DNA of 64,000 bases from Carcharhinus longimanus (lineage: Eukaryota). Below are positions 2,611-49,452 of this stretch, one piece after another. Under the pieces are notes generated by a model. The model worked only from the letters and a program-made list of their open reading frames with translations. It searched no databases and was not told the origin of the DNA. A program made the position numbers and the translations under genes. How positions within the stretch are numbered: position 1 is the first letter of the stretch; each line of letters begins with the position of its first letter. The stretch covers positions 8,544,137-8,608,136 of the forward strand of contig JASCQW010000119.1 of NCBI GenBank assembly GCA_030264375.1, read 5' to 3'.

Positions 2611-3243
2611 AGCAGAAATGCCGGCGCTGGATTGGGTTTTGGGCACGTTAAGACGTCTCACGACATCAAGTTAAATTCCAACAAGTTTATTTAGTTGATC
2701 GACCTTTTGGAGTGCTGCTAACATGCAAACGCTCTGACAATGGATGAACGGACACAATTCAATAATCACCAGGCAGGAGTTTTCCCTTCCTGCCGGGGAA
2801 CACTTCAGAAGTCAAGGGCATTCTGTCTCCGATCTTCGGGTAAGCCTTCCCTAAGGAAACCTTCAAGACTGAAAACAACACAAAATCAACGAGCAGAAAC
2901 TGATAACACGCATGAAGACGGCTTCAACCGGGATATTGGGGTCATGTCACATTATGTATAACCACGGACATTGGCATGGGCTTCCAAAATCCTCCCAATT
3001 GTCCCGACTTGAGACAGTTCAAACTCCCTTACTGTTATTAGCCCTCTCTCTACTCACATTGTCTGTGCCTGTAATGACTTGATTACCTGCTAAGGCTCGT
3101 ATTCGATTCATTATAGTGCAATTGAACCTGTGTCTATTATTTGCCCGTCTTGTGAACCCAAATCTCCTCTCTCCTGGTAACATGCTCTCTAAAAACTCGT
3201 GCTACCAAATAACAATGTTGGACTTTAACTTGCTGTTGTGAGA
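2611..3243 (+). mobile_element. Penelope fragment: inverted pLTR (about 2611-2720) fused to a + strand GIY-YIG end
   Basis: ORF 2740-2961 ends THEDGFNRDIGVMSHYV. The 5' part matches 190-295; the 3' tail GCTACCAAATAAC...GGACTTTAAC matches 1915-1960. Confidence 0.8.
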
Positions 3244-3604
3244 ATTGTAGCTGACATTTCGATTTTTTTTGTCTTCGAAGAATGTAGAGGTGTTGGCGGA
3301 CATTCTTAACTGTAGAAAAAAAAACACGGGCGACTTTCTGTGCAGCGATCACCGCTGTGCTGAAGCAGCATAATACACATTAGTGAGGCAGCACTCTCTT
3401 AGTCAGTTTGCTTGGAGGTTGCGTCACATATTTTATTAAAGAAAACTTTTTTGTTTTCCGATCTATAATCGGCGAGCAGTGAAGCAGGGGATCTCTCTCT
3501 AAATAGTTCTGATGTTGATCTGTTTGAAAAAAAATGAATTGAAGTGTTGTCGTTTACGATCGTCCTTACAAGCCTCAACGGCGAATTAACACATTTAATT
3601 TATG

Positions 3605-7029: not shown

Positions 7030-7243
7030 TAGTCTCTGCCCGTTGAAGAGATGGAGGCTACCTCGCTGAATATATTTAAGTCACGGGTAGATACTTTTCT
7101 GATAGACAAGAGAATTAAGGGTTATGTGGAGAAAGCAGGAAAATGGAACTGATCCGCTTCAGATCAGCCATGATCTCATTGAGTGGCGGGGCAGGCTCGA
7201 GGGGCTAGATGGCCTACTCTTGCTCCTATTTCTTATGTTATTA
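7030..7243 (+). mobile_element. CR1 LINE 3' end/UTR
   Basis: GATCAGCCATGATCTCATTGAGTGGCGGGGCAGGCTCGAGGGGCTAGATGGCCTACTC...TTCTTATGTT tail. Confidence 0.9.
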
Positions 7244-13523: not shown

Positions 13524-15784
13524 CTGGACACACACCTGGTCGCCCTATATTCACTTTTAATCAGGATGGCCTCATAATGTCTACGTAACTTCGAGCAAAA
13601 AAAAGACAACGAAACAAAACTGGTCGGAAACACATCCAATGAAAGAAAAAAATATTACCCTATCATGACATTAGCCTTCACCTCAATGGTAAAACATGAG
13701 GTACGCTTTATGCAACCCAATGACCTGAGTGTGCCGCTCGTGAAAGCGGATCCCACCTGCGCAGAACTCAGTCAATGCAAACCTACAAAAACATTACCAG
13801 GAAACAAAGAAACAAACTGGCAAATGATTACTGCAATATAGATGCTGAGTTGTTGGACATGGGGTAGCAAATCGTCCAATAGGAATTATCAGCACACAAC
13901 AACCGTTGTCACAACATCTTTTTCCTCCATCAGAAACAAACTTCAAAAAAAACGAACATGATTGCAAAATGAAAACTGTTCGCAGACTCTCATCACAATT
14001 CCTGCAAATTGGACTGAATATTTCATTGTGATTGTTGAGAAGAGCAAACGTTCAGTTCTTTCTTCAAAGTTTTTCATGAAACTTGTTAGCCTGGAATCAG
14101 GATGATGTTTCAGGAGGCAGGCGCTCAAGAAAATTTTGAATCTTCCTTAAGAACTCTTTACCATAAATATATGAAAATATTTGGAATGGTATGGCACAGG
14201 GTTTAGAGCCTTGTACCATTTTAAAAAAAACCTCAATCTATGCAGTCAGAAACGCTTAGTTATCGCACACGTTTTCTTTTTAAAAACACATAAATCGCTA
14301 GTTTCAGTTCCACATGCAAAGATATGACGTAAGCACAACTTTCAAATCACGCAGTTCCAGAGAAGTATCTTGGCCAACAAAGGTATTTACTAGTGAGTTT
14401 TCATCGTAGCATGCGCACATGCAGAAACGAACATGCACGCATGCCACCATTGATAGCTACAGCTGCAGCTAAATTGGGACACGAGAAAGATAATTGAGAT
14501 CTGCAACTCCGCCACAAGTTGTTATGTTTAGGACAAAAGATAAGTCGTACTAAATCTGCCTTCTTTAACATGTGTGACCTTTAACATAGATTAAATATAT
14601 TAATTAGAATTGTTCGTGTTGCCAAACTTCGATTTTATCACAATTTCGGCATTATGTGAAATTGATCGATAGTTGTGATTGGAAATACAAAACTTTGTCT
14701 CAAAGTGCAAGTTTTATTGTTTTTTTTTCAAAGGATCTTAATTTTAGTCTTTGATTGATTTGCAGCAGAACTTTGATTTTCTTCCTCGTGGACGACTGTT
14801 TGGTGCTTTGGGAACGGAGCATTCTGTATATCATTATTGCGCCAGATTAAAAAAAAAACCTGAAATACTCTGCTTTGTTCGCACGGAAAGAATATGTCAG
14901 GATCCCTGCAAAGAGATACATATCCTCTTCCGGTACTTTTGCTGCTGATCATCTTTCCAAGCAACGTTGAAAAGTATTTGCAGATCAAGACAGACTTACC
15001 TGCGACTTTCTATTAATGCCTCGTTGTGTTAATGTCACAGTAAAGAGTTATTTAAGCATAGTTGGGAAGTTTTGTTTTACTATCTTAATGAGTTATACAT
15101 ACCTTGGGGTTTGTAAAGAAAAATCAATATGAGGATTGGAATTAACACATAATAAACATGCTGCCAATTTTCTTTGTCAAACGTCCCGAGCAAGTGATGC
15201 AACATCTATGTGTGTTAATTGGTTGACACACGTCTGTGCTTTCCGCACTTCTGCGCACACACCAGAGATAGAGATATATGTCAACGCTCGTTCCCTTGCC
15301 AGAAAAAAAATCAGTGCAACACCTTAGATAACCAAATTATGTTTACCATGTAATACAATAAAGCACATTATAAGCCTTTTGCACGTTAGGATAAAAAACA
15401 AAGTGGTATAATCTCATTCAATAAGCCTTGTAAACAAGTGCTGGCCCCCCACATCTTTCACCTTTGAAGAAAAAGACTTTTGTGTTTTGTTGTTGCAAAA
15501 AACTTGCAAGTACATTTCTTAATCCCAAGGTCGCCTTTGCATCGAGCGCACTGCCTTGGCTCAGTCCGGATCATTATATTTCAAGATGCATGGGTCGCAA
15601 AAAAAAAGGGCGCAGGATTTAATTTTTCACGACAGTGAACTCAGAACAAAATTTGCAAAAGGCCAGAACTAAATTTGGGAAGGAATAAAGGAAAGCAATG
15701 AAAGTGCAGCTCATCGAATGTAACATGGAAAACAAGGCGATTTTGGAATGTGCATTCACTAAGTGGGTGAAGAAATAAATGCAG

Positions 15785-16116
15785 TAGATTGTGCCAATGT
15801 ACTGAACGAGAAGCTGCTTCACGTGGGATCATGTGATTTCTCCGCGAAGTACCCAGGAACACACATGAGGACATAGATAATGTTCTTCTTCAGCGGGCAG
15901 GGTTGGAAAAAGTGCAATTAGTTTCCTAAAATTAGTTCCTTGCAAAGCTGAGTGCATGTACTGTGTTAACGCACTTTCACGCTTCTCAATAAGACGTGGA
16001 ATATGAGGTAGTCAATGCCAAAATTCATTGGATAACTTTCCAATTCCACTTTGGTCAAAGAATATGGTCGACTGCATTTTGTAGGGATAGAGTTGTCAAG
16101 TGTTAAATATTACATC
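15785..16116 (+). repeat. Local direct duplication, copy 1 (copy 2 at about 16712-17048)
   Basis: Shared blocks GCCAATGTAC, GTACCCAGGAACACACATGAGGA, GACGTGGAATATGA and TTTCCAATTCCACTTTGGTCAAA at an offset of about 927-935. Confidence 0.9.
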
Positions 16117-16334
16117 TCTGCTAAGATATTAACGTGGACTTTTCATACTTCATTGATTCATCTTCCTAGCTCAAAGATAGACGATTGTGTACGCTGACAG
16201 AACATCCCCCCGAGACACACTACGTTTTTTTTTTCTCTGCAAAAATGCTCATTCATAGAAGTAAATGTGGGTGGTACGGTGGCATGACTGTTCAAAAGAA
16301 TAACAGTCCACGTGTATCTCTATCTATGTTATGC

Positions 16335-16645
16335 GGGCATGCCACGCTGGCACTGGACAAAGCACTGCCCCTCACAGCGTTAGGGACCCGCATTTTATTC
16401 CGGTCTTGGTTAACTTTATGGAATTTATACATTCCCCTTGCGTCTGCGTGTTTCCTTCAGGTTCTTTCTATTCCTCCCGCAGTCCAAAGATGTGCGAGTT
16501 AGACTGATTGACCATGGTACAGTGACTCGAGTGTCAGGGTCAGCAGTGTAATTATATGGGCTTACGGGGATAGGGCCTGGGTAGGAGTGTGGCCGGTGCA
16601 AACTCGAGGAGCCGAACGGCATATTTCTGCACTGCAGGAATTCGA
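16335..16645 (+). mobile_element. tRNA-derived V-SINE (HE1-like)
   Basis: tRNA-like head, V-domain GCGTCTGCGTGTTTCC...CCTCCCGCAGTCCAAAGATGTGC, CR1-like tail CTCGAGGAGCCGAACGGC. Confidence 0.85.
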
Positions 16646-16711
16646 TGCGAAATATTGCTAATTTACGGGATCGAAATCGGCCCTCCTGGCTAAACACGTT
16701 GCTGAAAATAG

Positions 16712-17048
16712 AAGATTGAGCCAATGTACACAGCGAGAAGCTGTTTAATGTGAAGTCGTGTGTTTTATCCGCTCTGTACCCAGGAACACACATGAGGATA
16801 CAGATCATTTTCTGCTCCTGCTGGCAGCGATGGAAAATGTGCGATTATTTTTGTTTTCTAAAATGTGCTCATTGGATAGCTGAGTGCATTTAACGTATTA
16901 ATGTACATTTACACTTCTCAGTATGGGACGTGGAATATGATACTTCAATACTAACACTCATTGGTTACCTTTCCAATTCCACTTTGGTCAAAAATATGTC
17001 TCAATGCATTTTGTGGGGATGGAGTTTTCACGTATTCAATGCTACATC
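16712..17048 (+). repeat. Local direct duplication, copy 2
   Basis: See copy 1. Confidence 0.9.
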
Positions 17049-17198
17049 ATATAGTTTGCTTACGTTTGTGCTTCTTACTTATGTAGTCTTACAAGTAAGA
17101 AGCACAGACGTAAATGGACTATAGAAGGGTACTTATCCACATTCCGTTTTCATTGCCAGGAACTATTCACACACAACATCATCATGTTAATCGGAGGG

Positions 17199-18015
17199 TG
17201 TAGCAGGCCATGATGAAACCTCAGATTACAGGAATTTTAAATCAATGCAAGTTAGCTCGGGAACATTAGCCTTATGCCAAATATAACACGAAAAGCCTCA
17301 TATATTATGCCAAAACATTGTTTATTAACCACACATACCATGGGTTTTAAGAAGTTATGTGACTTTGAAAATGAATTTTAAAGGTATTTCTGAGCCTTAG
17401 TCAAAACTAATTGCCACGTCGCGTAATGGGAAAGAAGTTAAATCAGGCAGATTGCATTCTGTGCGAGGGAGAGGACGCAATAACCTTCAAGTAACTGCAG
17501 CTGGAGTATTGCTGAAATTATTGGTCAACAGAAATCTTCAAGTGCCTACTGAAATGAATGGAAGTATTCAGAGTTTGCTGGTAAAGCTAAGACCGACTAG
17601 AAAGTGAATCATTATCAATTATGTGGTTTGAAAACTGCCTGATGTGCGTAAGCATTTTGCTCAACGATAGAGGAAAGAATTTTGGGTCGAATCAACCGGT
17701 GAATTCCTCATTCTGACTGGAGGTAGAATGATATTAGCCAAAGTGTTAAAGTAATTGAGCCACCCAGTCTGTATGACAGATTGACCCGGAATACAGACTT
17801 TCGAAAACGCTATATCAATTTTGCTCATGTGAGGTAAATTTAGAGAGAAGTTGAAATGTTTCCTGCATTTCTTTCCCAACATGTATTGGCCAGTTAAAGA
17901 CACGTGTTTGAATCAGGACGCTGAGTTCACGAGACTTCGTATTTAACATAAGTGTTTACAGTACACAGCACCAAAAGGTATCCACGTCCCCCCTCCCCGC
18001 CCTCCCACCCCAACA
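17199..18015 (+). repeat. 5' LTR of ERV A (left boundary tentative)
   Basis: 17719-18015 aligns to 21952-22225 at roughly 70% by eye. The proposed start TGTAGCAGG is an imperfect inverted repeat of the 3' LTR end CCTGCCAACA. Flanks GAGGG and GAGTG resemble a 5-bp TSD. Confidence 0.55.
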
Positions 18016-18019
18016 ACTT

Positions 18020-18037
18020 AGACGCTGCGAGCATGGT
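18020..18037 (+). promoter_or_regulatory. Primer binding site, tRNA-Ser-like
   Basis: AGACGCTGCGAGCATGGT, 4 nt after the LTR end. It matches 14/18 to TGGCGCAGCGAGCAGGGT, the complement of the vertebrate tRNA-Ser(UGA) 3' end as I recall it. Confidence 0.55.
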
Positions 18038-18419
18038 CAAATCACTGGATTCGGATGGGAGGACGTGACTGTTAGGGACGGGAGGACGTTTTATTTTAAA
18101 TACTCCAAAGTAGCTTGGCGAGTGGATGCCCTACCGACAGAGCCATAAAATGCCTCGCCCGAGTCGGCATAAGGCTATGCAAAACAATATCACTGACTGG
18201 TAAACCACACAAACAGGGCGCTGTAGAGGGACACACGTTGCTTCCCTGAAGAGCCAAGCGAAAATCCATGTGATGGGGTAACACGTGAGAGATTGATTCG
18301 GTGTAATCGGGGTGACTGCCGGTGAGAATGATCCTTGAGCATTTCACCTAACAAAGCTAAAAGCTGCACGATGAGTAAGCGCGGGAAGGGAGAACCTGTT
18401 ACATTAACATATTAGGGAT

Positions 18420-18818
18420 ATGGCAATCAGTTGTGGGCCGGAAACAAGGAGGAATTGGTTAGCAGAAAAGTGTGTTTGGAAAAAAAATAGAAACGTTTCG
18501 AGAGCGCTGAAGGGAGTGCAAGTCTTGCCCTGGGGGACGAAAGTTTTTTTTTTGAAATTGTCGGGTGTGTTGCGAGCGAGAGGCGCAGAGTTAAGAAATG
18601 GGAGTGAGACAGCAATGCATACACCCCGTTTGATCAGGGAGCGTGAGATTAGACGGGTTGGAGCGCTATGTGCGGTGGAGTAGGGTAGGGCAAATGATGT
18701 AATCTTGCTTTTATATGTTGGACGAAAGAAGGTGAAGGTTTCTGTTTATGTTTGTGAGTTCGATAAATCACTTTCCCCAGTTGTAAATTCTACGAAAGTA
18801 AAATCGATACAGGGTTAA
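18420..18818 (+). pseudogene. ERV A gag end and protease start (decayed)
   Basis: Eroded CCHC knuckle CRVC...RGAELRNG near 18559-18603 (needs a frameshift). TAG at 18681-18683 is followed in frame by GRANDVILLLYVGRKKVKVSVYVCEFDKSLS...KSIQG (cf. VGGxxVxFLVDTGAxxS...IQG); the catalytic DTG is lost. Confidence 0.45.
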
Positions 18819-19899
18819 GTTCAAAGCGATTGGGTATATTTAAAAAAAAAATACTTGAATTAGATCGATGTTGGAAATGATCAGTAGACACGAATATGTT
18901 CATTAAAATATAATAATTCGACAGAGGTTTTACCCCTGTCTTTTTAGAAAACGAAATTTAAAAACTTCATCAATCTCAACAAGGCACGTTACGTTTCGAT
19001 AGTCGCAAACAGCCTCAATTATTTCAGCAAACTTTTTATTTTTTTGTACCATTCTGCGGCTGGGAGCAGTGTTGGGGAATTAATTAAACATGCCCATTTT
19101 AAGCTTAAACTGAAGAGGTATGTCGGCTTAAAAATCGTAACTTAGTAGTGTTATTTAAGAGAAGTATCATACATTTTGTATCGGACTAATGGTACGATTA
19201 GCAATTTAAAAAATATATAATTAAGTGCTGAAAAAAAGGCTAGTACGAACTTTTTATTTGGATTGCCAATAAAAATTGATGATTTCATGACGTCTTGTTA
19301 AGTAAATCCACTCCAACCTTTTAAAGTAAACAGGGAATTGTTCAATTTTGTGTAAAACAAGATGGTTCGTTATGTTTAAATTTTTGCAGTAACTTGGAGC
19401 CAATATAAGAGCAATTGGAAACACAAATCAAAATCTCGTGTGTGTGTGTGTGTGTCGGGGGCGGGGGGGAGGGGTGGAAACATTCAGTGAGGAGGTTACA
19501 CAGGAAAGAATATGTTTTGTAACGTGAAGTGTACATTCGTCCCTATCGGATAATTTATGCTCACATCACCAGACAAATTAAGGCTGTTCAACAATGATAG
19601 TTACCTCATAGCATGTTTGTTGAATTATGAGGAGTCGATGTTCAAATGTTTGAATCAATCACAAGGTTGAGAGAAGTTGTTCAAAGGCATTGTTGTAAAT
19701 TTGGAATATTTGAAGGTCGAGAGTTGCCCTACCTGCCAGTTTGGCTCAAACGGAAAACGTCTTCCGCTAGTAAACTGACAGATTATTATAATTAGAGATT
19801 GGAGAATAAATCCAGTGGAATAAATGAACATTAGTGGAAACGAATATGCGTCGTGATATGTTGTACGTATTGGGAGTGAAAAGTGAACAGGTTAATAAT

Positions 19900-20487
19900 A
19901 ATGGTGTTTCTCGATTTTCAAAGGGTGTTTGATGAGGTGACGCACAAAAGGTTGCTTCAGAAGGTTAGGGGGCATGGAATTGGGGGTAAGGTGCTAGCGT
20001 GGATAGAGGATTGTTTGTCCAATAGGAGGCAGAAAGTTAGTATCAATGGGTGATATTCTGATTGGCGGTTGGTGTCTAGTGGAGTGCCGCAGAGATCGGT
20101 GCTGGTGCCTCAGCTACTTACCATTCATATAGATGATCTGGAGGAGGGCGCTGAGTGTAGGGTAACAACATTTGCTGATGACACAAAGATGAGTGGAAAA
20201 GCAAATTGTGCGGAGGGTGTGGAAAGCCTGCAGAGGGATCTGGATAGGCTGAGCGAGTGGGCGAGGACCTGGCAGATGGAGTACAATGTTAGCAAGTGTG
20301 AGGTNNNNNNNNNNNNNNNNNNNNNNNNNNNNNNNNNNNNNNNNNNNNNNNNNNNNNNNNNNNNNNNNNNNNNNNNNNNNNNNNNNNNNNNNNNNNNNNN
20401 NNNNAGCCGTGATCTTATTGAATGGTGGGGTAGACTCGAAGGGCTAGATGGCCTGCTCCTGCTACTAATTCTTATGTTCTTATGTTA
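19900..20487 (+). mobile_element. CR1 LINE (RT and 3' UTR, spans a gap) inserted in ERV A pol
   Basis: SGVPQRSVLVPQL...FADDTKMSG...LQRDLDRLSEWARTWQMEYNVSKCE; tail TTCTTATGTTCTTATG. Confidence 0.95.
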
Positions 20488-20522
20488 ACAAAGGAACGGT
20501 GATTGTAGGAGAGAAAAAAAAA

Positions 20523-20650
20523 ACAGCACAATTAACAGAGTTTTGGACTTTAGTACTGACCAATGGACAATGGATCAATGTTTATACCAGTATTAGATAT
20601 GCGAATGGAATAATGAACAATTACATGGCAGCCTGGAGTATACGCGATAT
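20523..20650 (+). pseudogene. ERV A RNase H relic
   Basis: One open frame: TAQLTEFWTLVLTNGQWINVYTSIRYANGIMNNYMAAWSIRD (cf. retroviral SAQxAELxAL...VNIYTDSRYAFG...W..RG). Confidence 0.75.
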
Positions 20651-21059
20651 TGAGTTGGATTGGTGTGGGCAGAGTTAGAATTCTCACCATGTTAATGTCC
20701 AACAGGTGGAGATGATGTGGTGTTGTGATTTCTAGTGGGGGGCACATACAACATGCGGATTAAGTTGGAATTTACTGTGAGCAGCTCACAGTCACCGAGA
20801 AGCGGCAGTAATGCTATGTCAAGCCCGCCAGAAGATTACAAATCAGTTGGAAGGCGGAAGCAGCTTAGGTTACAAAGTGGCGAATACTTGAGCGGAAAAT
20901 GATTGGGAATGAAAACAAGCTACAGGGGAAACAAACATTGTTGCCAGACACTGTTCGAATGTCGATCCGAAAATAAGTGTACGAACAAGAAGATGATGAG
21001 GAAAATAAAATGAGAGAGAAGGAAGGAAGAAATGTCTTAATGGGTTCTGGGGAAGTGGA

Positions 21060-21940
21060 GGAAAATATTTCCCCTCGACGTAATCGCTGATGACACTTAC
21101 ATCAACGATTAGCACATGAACGCGGAGACAAAATATTTCATTTGCCAAGGGAAATTTGGTGGCTGAAACAGCTGTGAACATATGTGGAGACATTTTGACT
21201 TTTTTGTTTCAGCGCGCCCGACTGGAGCCAGCTCGTACCTTGGGGGAAGTTGGACATTAAAATTGAAAATCAACGACGACCCACATCACCAGAGGTAAAT
21301 GCACAAATCTACTTTACAAGCCTTTGGCCATGATCCAAGAATAAGTGTATTGTTTGATAATTGTGGATCAGTTAACTATTGGTGAATGAGATAATACCTA
21401 TATGGGGAATTTTGGTTCAGATCAGGCAACTCTTTTCACAAGCAGATCTTAAAAGGAAGTATGCCGGATGTTAGGAAGCAAGCGAAGATTTAATGTGCCA
21501 GAACATCTTCCGACCAGAGGTGTGGTGAAATTTAAGAACCGAGAACTGAAGGACAGGGTAGCTAAAGCTATTATAGACGAATGAACTAATAGGCTGCAGA
21601 CTTTGCATGCAATATGTCTGCGACAAAGTGCTGTCTCAACTCACGGAAAAGTGCTAACTCACCCCTTTTTGAAGTGATGACTGGCAGTGCAATGCGCATC
21701 CCCGAGGATGCAATTACAGGTGGAAAAAAACTTGAGTTAGGCCAAGGGGCAGTAGTTTAATGCATGAGGAATTTGAAGATCGTTGACATTTTGATGTAAA
21801 TCAGGCACTCAAGCAGCAGCAGGAAGGTTGGGCTACAAAGGCTGGAGAGCACAGTTATGAATTGACTACAGCAGCAGGTACCATAATAGTGAAACTGATA
21901 TAGACAAAAAGGGATAGGATGTCCTTGGGAAGGTTGTACC
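21060..21940 (+). pseudogene. ERV A integrase relic
   Basis: AQIYFT...LIIVDQLT / LVNEIIPIWGI / from 21417 SDQATLFTSRS*KEVCRMLGSKRRFNVPEHLPTRGVVKFKNRELKDRVAKAI / FEVMTGSAMRIP / PWEG. This follows rve core order. Confidence 0.8.
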
Positions 21941-21951
21941 TAATTATGCCA

Positions 21952-22225
21952 GGAGGTAGAATGCTCTTAGCCAAGGTAAATAACGTAATTGGATCATTCA
22001 ATCTGTATGTCATTTTGGGCAGGAAAACAAACTTTCAGAAAAAGGTTAATCAGATTTTCTCAAAAGATGTGATTTCAGAGAATAGTTAGAGTCCATTTTG
22101 TATCTCTCGCCCAATGCGTGTTTGTCAAATAAAGACACGTCTATGAATCAGGACATGAGTTTGCACTTTTCCGTATTCAGGTTAAGTTTAGGAATGCACA
22201 GCCTCAAAATGATCTCCTGCCAACA
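21952..22225 (+). repeat. 3' LTR of ERV A (U3 start deleted)
   Basis: Paralogous to 17719-18015, contains AATAAA at about 22128, and ends CCAACA. Confidence 0.65.
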
Positions 22226-22529
22226 GAGTGTATATGGTGACAATGGTTGCTGGAGCATCACATGTTTAGTTGAAATTCCCAGCTGTGATAAGTTGTTATA
22301 CTGGAACTTGTTTTTATCAATTTAACCGAATCAAATAATAATAGTGCATGAGACAGAAAAGTATGTGGTTTATTGTTATGTCATTGAATTGAAAACCACT
22401 GGCTAAGACAAAAATGAAGTCGCAGCATTAAACGATTCTTCTGTGTAAGGTCTGAATTACACTCTTGAACTCCTCCTCCCCCCACCCCCCACCTCTTTAA
22501 AAATTGGCAAATCATTTTGCATCTTTATA

Positions 22530-22839
22530 GAATTTTAGTTAGACCGCACTTGAACTATTGTGTACATTTCTGATTGCCATACTACCAGAAGGATGTGGAG
22601 CTTTGGGGAGGGTAAAGAAGAGATTTACCAGGTTGCTGCTTATAACGGAGGACATTTTCTTTGAGGAGAGGTTGGAGCAACTTGATATGTTCTTACAAGG
22701 GCGACGGTGGTTGAGGCTGATGGAATTCCACACAAATAAGAGGGTCGAGGACAGAGTGGATTGCCAATATCTTTTTCGCAGGGTGAAAACATTTAATTAC
22801 TAGCGAGCGGAGGTTTTAGGTGCGAGGGCAAGGTGTATT
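22530..22839 (+). mobile_element. CR1 ORF2 3' fragment, runs into a gap
   Basis: AGACCGCACTTGAACTATTGTGTACATTTC...AAGAAGAGATTTACCAGG (RPHLEYC...RFTR region). Confidence 0.85.
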
Positions 22840-23119: not shown

Positions 23120-23700
23120 AAATGCTCAGTTTTGAACTGTGTCATTGACTGTAACACTGGCTTCCACCAGTTTGTCCAAGAACTCCTTGCCGCTCTTGGT
23201 GTATCAGAATTAGAAGGAGCCCGTCTTAATATTTCTGCTGCGGTGGAACTAACTGACATCTGTAATGTGGACTTCACTAAGGGCCTCCAGTCGCAAATTT
23301 CCCTCTTTTTGATGTGGTGTAGTTGCACCAGGTGGCCCTTGGTGTCTTAGCAGGAAGAATGGAGACTTTGTGCGGCTGTAAATGAAACATGCTGCCTCTA
23401 ATCAAATCGGACCAGAGAAGTCGGACCGATACACATACTAATGAGCATTAGTATGTGTATCGGTCCCCTGCATTCAGTTGCTTATGAAAAGCCTATTTCA
23501 TTGGTGCGATTGCCGCCCTAGCATTTACGGGTGGTTTGGTGTTTTTGTTTAACTCTTCTCAAATAAATTGTTGTTGCCCTTGCCATTCTCATTGTCCTGT
23601 ACGCCGCATTTTTTTTTGCTGTACTCATGGCATTTGTCGTCCTGCTGGTCCTATCCACAGCCTCGGCCTCCATCTGCTTCCTCTCCTCCCAACCTACGAA
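23120..23700 (-). mobile_element. L1-clade ORF1 relic
   Basis: Minus-strand DNENGKGNNNL (cf. DLENRxRRNN) and SDTPRAA/KEFLDKL (cf. FxxPxxAxxFL C-terminus). Very decayed. Confidence 0.4.
23423..23466. repeat. Perfect inverted repeat, 21-bp arms, 2-nt spacer
   Basis: GGACCGATACACATACTAATG-AG-CATTAGTATGTGTATCGGTCC. Confidence 0.97.
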
Positions 23701-44452: not shown

Positions 44453-44877
44453 CAATTTTCACAACTGATTCAGCTTTAGTCGCTTAATGTATGTTGTCAT
44501 TATTGATAAATGCATTAGTTCCACACGATAAATAAGTTGGCTCTGACTGCAGGATAGAAACTGTCAATTCACTGGAGAGTAACTCACATAAAGTGTTCCA
44601 AAAGGTTGCCAAATAACTGCATGTCCCATTCAAAAGCACCAAAACATTTTCTATAAGTATTTGCCCGAGTTCCACTACAACATCAGTCAGGACTATCTAG
44701 CGCACAGACAACAATACATTTGTTTTGATAGTATGTTATGCATTTCACTAGACATTTCACTCACTTACACATAGTCACAATTTTTAAATTGCGTCCGCCG
44801 GGCCAGTATGAATGCTTCTATTACAGATGACGTTGACGACAGCCAACATGAAGTGTGCATGTTACCGTTTAAAACAT
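44453..44877 (+). repeat. Local direct duplication, copy 1 (copy 2 at about 45616-46008)
   Basis: Shared ATTCAGCTTTAGTCGC, CTGCAGGATAGAAACTGTCAATTC, CCAAAACATTTTCTATAAGTATTTG and TTACAGATG. Confidence 0.95.
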
Positions 44878-45615: not shown

Positions 45616-46008
45616 CAATTTCCACAACTCATTCAGCTTTAGTCGCCGAATGTATGTTGTCGTTTAAGATAAATAAGTTGGCTCTTACTGCAGGATAGAA
45701 ACTGTCAATTCTGCGGAGAGTGACTCAAATAAACGATTCCAAAAGATTGTCAAACAACTGCATATCCCATTCAAAAGGACCAAAACATTTTCTATAAGTA
45801 TTTGTCCGAGTTCCACAACAAGAACACTCAGGAATATGTACCGCACAAACAGCGATACATTTGGCTTGATTGTGTCTTATGCATTTCACGAGACATTTCA
45901 CTCACTTTCACATTGTCACATTTTTTAAACTGCATCCGACGGGACAATGTGAATGGTTCTTTTACAGATGGAGCATATTATATGTGTGTATATTTTCGTT
46001 CAAAGCAT
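45616..46008 (+). repeat. Local direct duplication, copy 2
   Basis: See copy 1. Lacks about 22 bp between two GATAAAT microhomologies. Confidence 0.95.
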
Positions 46009-49244: not shown

Positions 49245-49452
49245 TCATTTCAGGTTAAAATCCAACAGATTTATTTGGTAGCACGGGGTTCCGGAGCGGT
49301 GCTCTTTCATGAGATGAGAGGCGCTCGTCTGATGAAGGAGCAGCGCTCCGAAAGTTCGTGCTACCAAATAAACGTGTTCGTCTTTAACCTGCTGTTGTGA
49401 GAATACTTGTTCTGCCTTATCCCAGTCCAAAGGACAGCAACTCCACATCGCA
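49245..49452. mobile_element. Short palindromic Penelope-derived element (head-to-head pLTRs)
   Basis: 49250-49315 is the reverse complement of about 49325-49392. Confidence 0.85.
49325..49361 (+). ncRNA. Minimal hammerhead ribozyme motif (stem I decayed)
   Basis: CTGATGA-A-GGAGC-AGC-GCTCC-GAAA-GT-TC-GTG, with a perfect 5-bp stem II. Confidence 0.55.

Follow-up and report, generated by a model that had tools for sequence, protein, structure and literature searches.

The DNA analysed here, called the window in what follows, is a stretch of 64,000 nucleotides from the shark Carcharhinus longimanus (assembly GCA_030264375.1, contig JASCQW010000119.1, positions 8,544,137 to 8,608,136 of the forward strand), and all positions are counted from its first letter. 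On its plus strand, the interval 17199..22225 holds a genuine, very old endogenous retrovirus (ERV) relic, which is badly broken and not structurally complete. Paired long terminal repeats (LTRs) with TG...CA ends and a target-site duplication (TSD) are present, the 3' LTR being truncated and the TSD matching at 4 of 5 positions, and an RNase H of retroviral type (the second RNase H) lies upstream of integrase. An earlier note, made from the letters alone, had described the interval as a very old and structurally complete ERV with a tRNA-Ser primer binding site (PBS) and an amber gag-pol junction. Every gene is broken or gone, the relic encodes nothing, and it shows no sign of function or risk.

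The 5' LTR (17199..18015) measures 817 bp and carries a C-rich expansion near its own 3' end, and the 3' LTR (21937..22225), with AATAAA at 22128, is truncated at its 5' side and measures 289 bp. Local alignment of 17704-17978 with 21937-22211 gave 69.2% identity over 273 columns with a score of 545, against a maximum of 113 among 200 shuffles, and so confirmed the two direct repeats of about 70% identity that had been seen by eye; global alignment yielded 69.7-71.5% in four of five scoring schemes and 75.4% in the fifth. Both LTRs terminate in CCAACA (18010-18015 and 22220-22225), as had been noticed before. The Kimura two-parameter (K2P) distance of the pair is 0.40 (bootstrap 0.31-0.51), and transitions and transversions between the LTRs (41/43) are near the even-split spectrum found between orthologues. 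For 17199-17703, which make up the first ~505 bp of the 5' LTR, no counterpart exists near the 3' end; the score there, 63, does not reach the average of the shuffles (80). This upstream part belongs to the LTR of the family, because contigs from other loci show joints between 17585 and 21940 and between 17414 and 17537, and from bin 17219 onwards they add to the depth. Related copies elsewhere were detected in all four sequencing runs used as short pieces of at least 80% identity over both LTRs and over 21663-21775, and no full solo LTR was seen as such among the contig pieces of these runs; no related DNA locus was found in viral contigs or metagenome contigs. The repeats therefore have copies elsewhere as well as common ends, features whose absence the earlier note had named as speaking against its reading.

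The outer boundaries and the PBS also agree with what had been proposed. Among the 59 TG sites in 16900-17704, position 17199 gives the best inverted match to the end of the 3' LTR, an imperfect terminal inverted repeat, and it is one of the two sites at which a 5-bp TSD of at least 4/5 occurs (GAGGG at 17194..17198, GAGTG at 22226..22230); only 17199 combines the two features, and in the whole window they coincide at 2 of 4972 TG sites. An eroded PBS is located 4 nt after the 5' LTR (18020..18037), where 14 of 18 positions are complementary to the 3' end of human tRNA-Ser(UGA), for which the sequence given in PMC11096365 was taken; this was the one tRNA used in the search. No other 14/18 match exists among ~128,000 positions on both strands of the window.

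Relics of viral domains were located with a frameshift-aware aligner, two profiles of relatives (a class I and a non-crown profile) and 100 shuffles. The C-terminal two thirds of an RNase H of retroviral type, interrupted by stops and frameshifts, are present at 20514..20903 with scores of 65 (non-crown profile) and 81 (class I profile), reached by none of the 100 shuffles, and the alignment to the tree rows scored 97 against a shuffle maximum of 39. A broken integrase core and C-terminal part follow at 21277..21934, the core (21277-21712) scoring 178 with the non-crown and 132 with the class I profile (0/100 shuffles as good) and matching solved retroviral integrases with E 6e-5, so that the order RNase H then integrase given in the earlier note stands. 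The C-terminal third of integrase alone narrowly beat 300 of 300 shuffles (48 vs 41). The integrase zinc-binding region (21100..21207) is weak: it was marginal with the profiles (1/100 and 0/100 shuffles reached its score), fell below the shuffle maximum in the tree-row alignment and was left out of the Pol tree. A search of representatives returned two proteins, of which one was real, namely P0001 (E 1.2e-9), together with its cluster mate P0003; the other, P0002, was dropped as a repeat-like open reading frame (ORF). P0001 (Logan) and P0003 (JGI) are unnamed integrase C-halves that belong to the family of the relic, with 48-51% identity to it over 118 core columns (51% for P0003, frameshift-aware score 327 vs ~34-42 for shuffles), and they have a C-terminal extension in common with it. 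Against P0003, the 568 bases of relic integrase at 21367-21934 show 11 breaks, of which 6 are stops and 5 are frameshifts. Protease, retroviral reverse transcriptase (RT), thumb, tether and the N-terminal part of RNase H remained at chance level with both profiles (20-87 of 100 shuffles as good); an RNase H N-terminus seen by eye before the LINE described below was likewise not supported by profiles against shuffles. The RNase H frame had no match in PDB, a protein atlas assigned P0001 to generic integrase clusters and returned nothing usable for a 91-residue 5' ORF, and the only Pfam match of 15 frame pieces over the six frames of the element was the RT of the LINE.

At the 3' end, homology to P0003 stops at 21934, at residue 217 out of the 248 in that protein, and the 3' repeat, which lacks its first ~505 bp, begins three bases further on. 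One deletion has therefore taken the integrase tail, any env, the polypurine tract (PPT) and the first ~505 bp (most of U3) of the 3' LTR. The PPT is missing, as integrase homology extends to 21934 and the LTR starts mid-sequence at 21937, and between the two there is no room for env. A start of the 3' LTR at TGT 21920, after a purine run, was considered and rejected, as this stretch is integrase C-terminus. With a 3' LTR of 289 instead of 817 bp, an integrase ~30 residues short and ~505 bp unpartnered, the description of the element as structurally complete cannot be retained.

The eroded internal region between PBS and LINE (18038..19867) would correspond to leader, gag, pro and part of pol with large deletions. 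It contains no detectable domain and is orthologous in other organisms. Since it follows the PBS and resembles the pol part in its G-skew of 0.25, a value that 2 of 110 other windows attain, the region is probably of viral origin. Its length is 1.8 kb, and the related protein P0033 needs ~2 kb of Pol up to the matching RNase H, before any Gag, which suggests that large parts of gag, pro and RT were lost. Three features described for this region in the earlier note found no support. The best CCHC knuckle was equalled by 151 of 200 shuffles in a dedicated profile of 24 rows. In a dedicated protease profile of 31 rows, the best site was beaten by 176 of 200 shuffles, and the frame after the TAG at 18681-18683, the proposed amber gag-pol junction with its protease-like peptide, scored lower still; TAGGG itself occurs four times within 18038-19867. 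Erosion may hide knuckle, amber junction and protease. When 20 Gag-bearing or long proteins were compared with the 5' internal region, none beat all 20 of its own shuffles. A C-x2-C motif lies near 19720.

Downstream of this region, at 19868..20486 (5' edge +/- ~30 bp), the element is interrupted by the 3' fragment of a long interspersed element (LINE), which we take from its sequence features to be of CR1 type and which represents a later insertion, upstream of the detectable part of RNase H. It includes the only RT in the interval (~19895-20304, Pfam RVT_1 E 3.8e-15) and an assembly gap of 100 N (20305-20404); neither LINE nor gap had been mentioned in the earlier note, and both add to the incompleteness of the element. 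The LINE fragment is of high copy number, with a depth of 10^5-10^6 in contigs and loose ends at 20304 and 20486, and its 3' end recurs at 7166 of the window (repeat family D8). Its junctions are covered by contigs in the runs X6 and X16. A TSD of the LINE itself was not supported (189 of 500 shuffles as good).

The earlier note had suggested a search for the orthologous insertion in other sharks. From 4 of 21 listed runs contigs were obtained, only the longest pieces being listed and gaps being left uncounted, and an orthologous locus was recovered from three further organisms, here B, D and E, with 4-8% divergence. Contigs of organism B cover 16473-19964 (139 differences) and 20457-22693 (90), those of organism E cover 16236-19427 (222) and 21207-22483 (102), and in organism D there is internal coverage in pieces. 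The contigs of B and E cross both edges of the element (5' flank to LTR and 3' LTR to flank) and both LINE junctions, and because these edges and junctions are shared, the provirus, its deletions there and the LINE predate the splits from B and E. Jukes-Cantor distances from the listed pieces, to which a paralogous LTR piece of X16 (79%) and the pieces of X6 with LINE sequence only did not contribute, are 0.041 (B), 0.041 (D) and 0.078 (E), which gives ratios of LTR distance to orthologue distance of 9.8, 9.8 and 5.2 (4.0-6.6 for E). The insertion is 5-10 times older than the sampled host splits, in agreement with the very ancient LTR retrovirus insertion claimed before. The other explanation then offered, a locally fast-evolving region, lacks support, because element and immediate flank diverge alike: a rough comparison gave 0.040/0.040/0.074 for element pieces (some with flank) and 0.037/0.031/0.077 for flank pieces.

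An absolute age was calculated as d/2u with assumed rates. The K2P distance of 0.40 corresponds to 91 million years (My) at a mammalian rate of 2.2e-9, 200 My at 1e-9 and 401 My at 0.5e-9, the last being the rate assumed for catshark in PMC10699275; at 2.2e-10, the rate assumed in PMC4422223, the age would be 911 My, which is impossible. For the epaulette shark a pedigree rate of 7e-10 per generation was reported (PMC10587355). The age is thus roughly 200-400 My at an assumed rate of 0.5-1e-9 per site and year and, depending on the rate, probably exceeds 150 My. Paired-LTR dates found for cartilaginous-fish hosts amount to 36-75 My (PMC4422223, PMC10699275), with distances more than 10 times smaller where these are given.

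In order to classify the virus, a quick RT tree of 79 of 271 proteins was used, to which we assigned our own clade labels. It separates Gypsy-like rows, a loki-like clade (whose RT motif is identical to that of Loki-Pma in the supplement of PMC7947760), a 28-row clade with REV ("crown class I", with WDSV-like motifs by eye) and, between these, a grade formed by ERVs of fish and amphibians whose RT motifs are like those of snakehead retrovirus (SnRV). In trees of integrase (61 proteins plus the relic) and of Pol (the relic with 39 of 319 proteins, 27% of columns filled), the relic and P0001/P0003 form a clade with support of 98-99, which lies outside crown class I (clade support 100 in the Pol tree) and outside the loki-like and Gypsy rows. 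The next-best integrase scores belong to the fish grade (170-185), followed by class I (60-136), loki-like (86-99) and Gypsy-like rows (55-97). Placement on a fixed backbone with 69 branches gave the fish grade or stem a weight of 0.947 (0.915 for P0001/P0003 alone) and left 0.052 for crown class I or the stem leading to it. From these comparisons a virus of the fish-retrovirus grade, outside crown gamma/epsilon, is favoured with a weight of 0.95 vs 0.05. In the earlier note the virus was assigned to the gamma/epsilon group, which is too narrow, since its type of RNase H is common to class I and a more basal fish grade. A branch of their own unites the proteins nearest to the relic, and the lineage may be undescribed, as had been surmised when its use for dating was proposed.

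The relatives differ from the relic in preservation and distance. P0001/P0003 have open frames and near-zero branch length, pointing to much younger or better kept copies. The fish ERV grade (P0033/P0185/P0187, P0195, P0200 and P0209, with hosts including Cirrhinus, Coilia and Pimephales) has the same RNase H type and receives the best placement, although its integrases are only 31-35% identical to that of the relic, its members are recent and intact, and no single branch is preferred. An annotated Heptranchias perlo gene model (P0056) starts with an integrase fragment of this broad grade, 35% identical to the relic, and is probably a mis-joined model over an ERV. As for SnRV and SnRV-like ERVs (clade Huo of PMC6001957; lineage I of CmiERV, PMC4422223), the RT motifs of the grade are similar to those of SnRV in the supplement of PMC7947760. 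Compared by eye, SnRV shows ~42% RT and ~49% RNase H identity to P0033 and ~47% and ~42% to P0049, and because it is about equally near to both, the grade may be either "SnRV-like" or "stem class I" in published schemes. CmiERV lineage I has an LTR distance of 0.033 and an env, unlike the relic (PMC4422223). Epsilon and gamma class I ERVs (WDSV, REV; CmiERV lineages II-III) have the RNase H motif type, the domain order and the 5' LTR-PBS layout of the relic; its integrase, however, is placed outside their crown, and amber junction, knuckle and protease are not demonstrable in it. An ERV-L orthologue of placental mammals (PMC3758187) is likewise very old, orthologous and deleted, with nested later insertions and a minimum age of 104-110 My; it belongs to a different lineage and host, and the age of the relic is derived from LTR distance and undated host splits.

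Taken together, a single retroviral integration, fixed in an ancestor of at least four sampled organisms and followed by neutral decay, with the virus belonging to fish-grade Retroviridae, is the explanation that we consider probable. A tRNA-Ser-primed retrovirus would have integrated with a 5-bp duplication, as boundaries, TSD and PBS indicate, its two ~0.8-kb LTRs being identical at insertion. Large gag, pro and RT parts would then have been lost, and the deletion described above removed the 3' portion; a CR1 fragment inserted later, before the splits of C. longimanus, B and E, as the common junctions show, while neutral decay would have added stops, frameshifts and internal deletions. From RNase H and integrase, the virus would be a member of the Retroviridae of the fish grade, with class-I-type RNase H and relatives with SnRV-like RT motifs, outside the REV crown. 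We infer a single origin across the gap, the viral origin of the 5' region, the lineage and the absolute age. Several points weigh against this explanation. The TSD matches at only 4/5, no listed contig bridges the N gap, neither protein homology nor a CR1 TSD links its two sides, and the two halves are joined by scaffolding and by LTR/TSD logic only. In 18038-19867 there is no detectable viral homology, and no RT survives in the relic (shuffle level with two profiles). Crown class I (0.061), the P0049 group (0.111) and Gypsy (0.075) all survived one-clade approximately unbiased (AU) tests, which were run on quick trees. In the integrase-only tree, four rows that RT assigns to class I fall outside the class I clade, REV is the only named virus in the trees, which contain no foamy, ERV-L, alpha, beta, lenti or SnRV references, and among lineages both RNase H and integrase have been exchanged on several occasions (PMC7947760).

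That the same old single insertion came instead from a crown class I (epsilon- or gamma-like) virus with amber readthrough is in our view unlikely. RNase H, when placed alone, does fall inside the crown with 0.56 (0.44 for the grade), its best pairwise score is 115 with a class I protein (P0220) vs 112 in the fish grade (P0209), it scores 81 vs 65 in favour of the class I profile, an in-frame TAG-GG exists at 18681 and the p-AU of 0.061 (0.06-0.10 over tests) does not reject this position. Integrase, in contrast, prefers the non-crown profile (178 vs 132), the combined placement leaves the crown a weight of 0.05, the relic stands outside a class I clade of support 100, and protease and knuckle are at shuffle level. 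Slightly less probable still is a younger chimera, in which the halves derive from two proviruses of related subfamilies, by recombination or mis-scaffolding at the CR1 gap, and the LTR divergence overstates the age. The unbridged gap, the imperfect TSD, the lack of homology between the halves and a distance of 0.40 that is more than 10 times the LTR distances of elephant shark ERVs (0.033 and 0.024; PMC4422223) would suit it, whereas TSD and inverted repeat coincide at only 2 of 4972 sites, both halves and both flanks are orthologous in B and E, and long neutral erosion would, without recourse to the LTRs, account for the integrase decay (51% identity to the closest intact relative, 11 breaks); the unrecognisable 5' region is likewise in keeping with great age. 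A lokiretrovirus or Gypsy/Metaviridae element, rather than a retrovirus proper, is very improbable and already largely refuted. Database names of the relatives often read "Gypsy retrotransposon integrase-like", env is not seen, and the free one-clade Gypsy test (0.075) rejects nothing; nevertheless, RNase H scores against retroviral rows only (33-41 for loki-like and Gypsy rows, within shuffles), the fixed backbone rejects both positions (p-AU <=0.006 for loki-like, <=0.001 for Gypsy, so that Pol does not cluster with Gypsy, the outcome named beforehand as adverse), and, by eye, the RNase H and integrase rows of lokiretroviruses in the supplement of PMC7947760 are of a different appearance. 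The lokiretrovirus reading in particular, which would close a gap on record, as six chondrichthyan genomes are unmarked for lokiretrovirus in Table S2 of PMC7947760, was rejected on RNase H and integrase scores and placement.

Outside the element the window looks intergenic or intronic. Pfam gave no match and no host gene for the 73 of 78 stop-free frames of at least 85 residues that were searched, five low-complexity frames being left out, and tRNA and Rfam scans of the window gave no matches. Just upstream of the provirus there is an old local duplication (15783-16116 and 16710-17048, K2P 0.24 over 331 columns), with a very high-copy SINE-like repeat between its copies (~16450-16570), which resembles V-SINE/HE1, and a hairpin with 31-nt arms (17050-17123, 84% complementary) ends 75 bp before the 5' LTR. 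Farther away lie a long inverted repeat at 223-1966 (arms of ~780 bp, 72-83% complementary, 180-bp spacer; partial copies near 2656-3245), whose translation we take by eye to resemble the endonuclease end of Penelope-like elements, a perfect 21-nt hairpin at 23423-23466, a hairpin with 68-nt arms at 49251-49391 (81%) and a local duplication of 86% identity at 44453-44826 and 45616-45967 (spacing ~1.15 kb). Ten N gaps occur in the window (1-64000).

ERVs are abundant in cartilaginous fish, where six genomes contain 2018 RT loci of clade I and 2843 of clade III (PMC11089739), and SnRV-like and epsilon-like ERVs are known in elephant shark (PMC4422223), so that one more relic is ordinary; the element is a new, unusually old member of an already known sort of ERV. 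No paper on an orthologous elasmobranch ERV was found in a literature search that lay outside repeat libraries (Repbase, Dfam) and most paper supplements, where the family may be catalogued. RT-based screens would miss the relic, as its only RT is that of a LINE. Its outstanding trait is age, with both LTRs alignable at 0.40 and orthologous across species. Such a locus sets a hard lower limit to the age of a retroviral lineage in an early group of vertebrates and allows the neutral rate of the host to be calibrated from within; the relic is a dating marker, not a complete virus. We offer tentatively the further claim that this is a single integration more than 200 My old, older than a major cartilaginous-fish lineage split, and that its virus represented a deep, as yet undescribed lineage placed between the snakehead-like and the class I retroviruses. 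If this is true, its age would be about twice that of the ERV-L orthologue, the LTR pair would bound the long-term neutral rate of the host from below (at ~0.35e-9 or above, given an insertion less than 450 My old), and the rate of 2.2e-10 used for elephant shark ERVs would be excluded for this locus.

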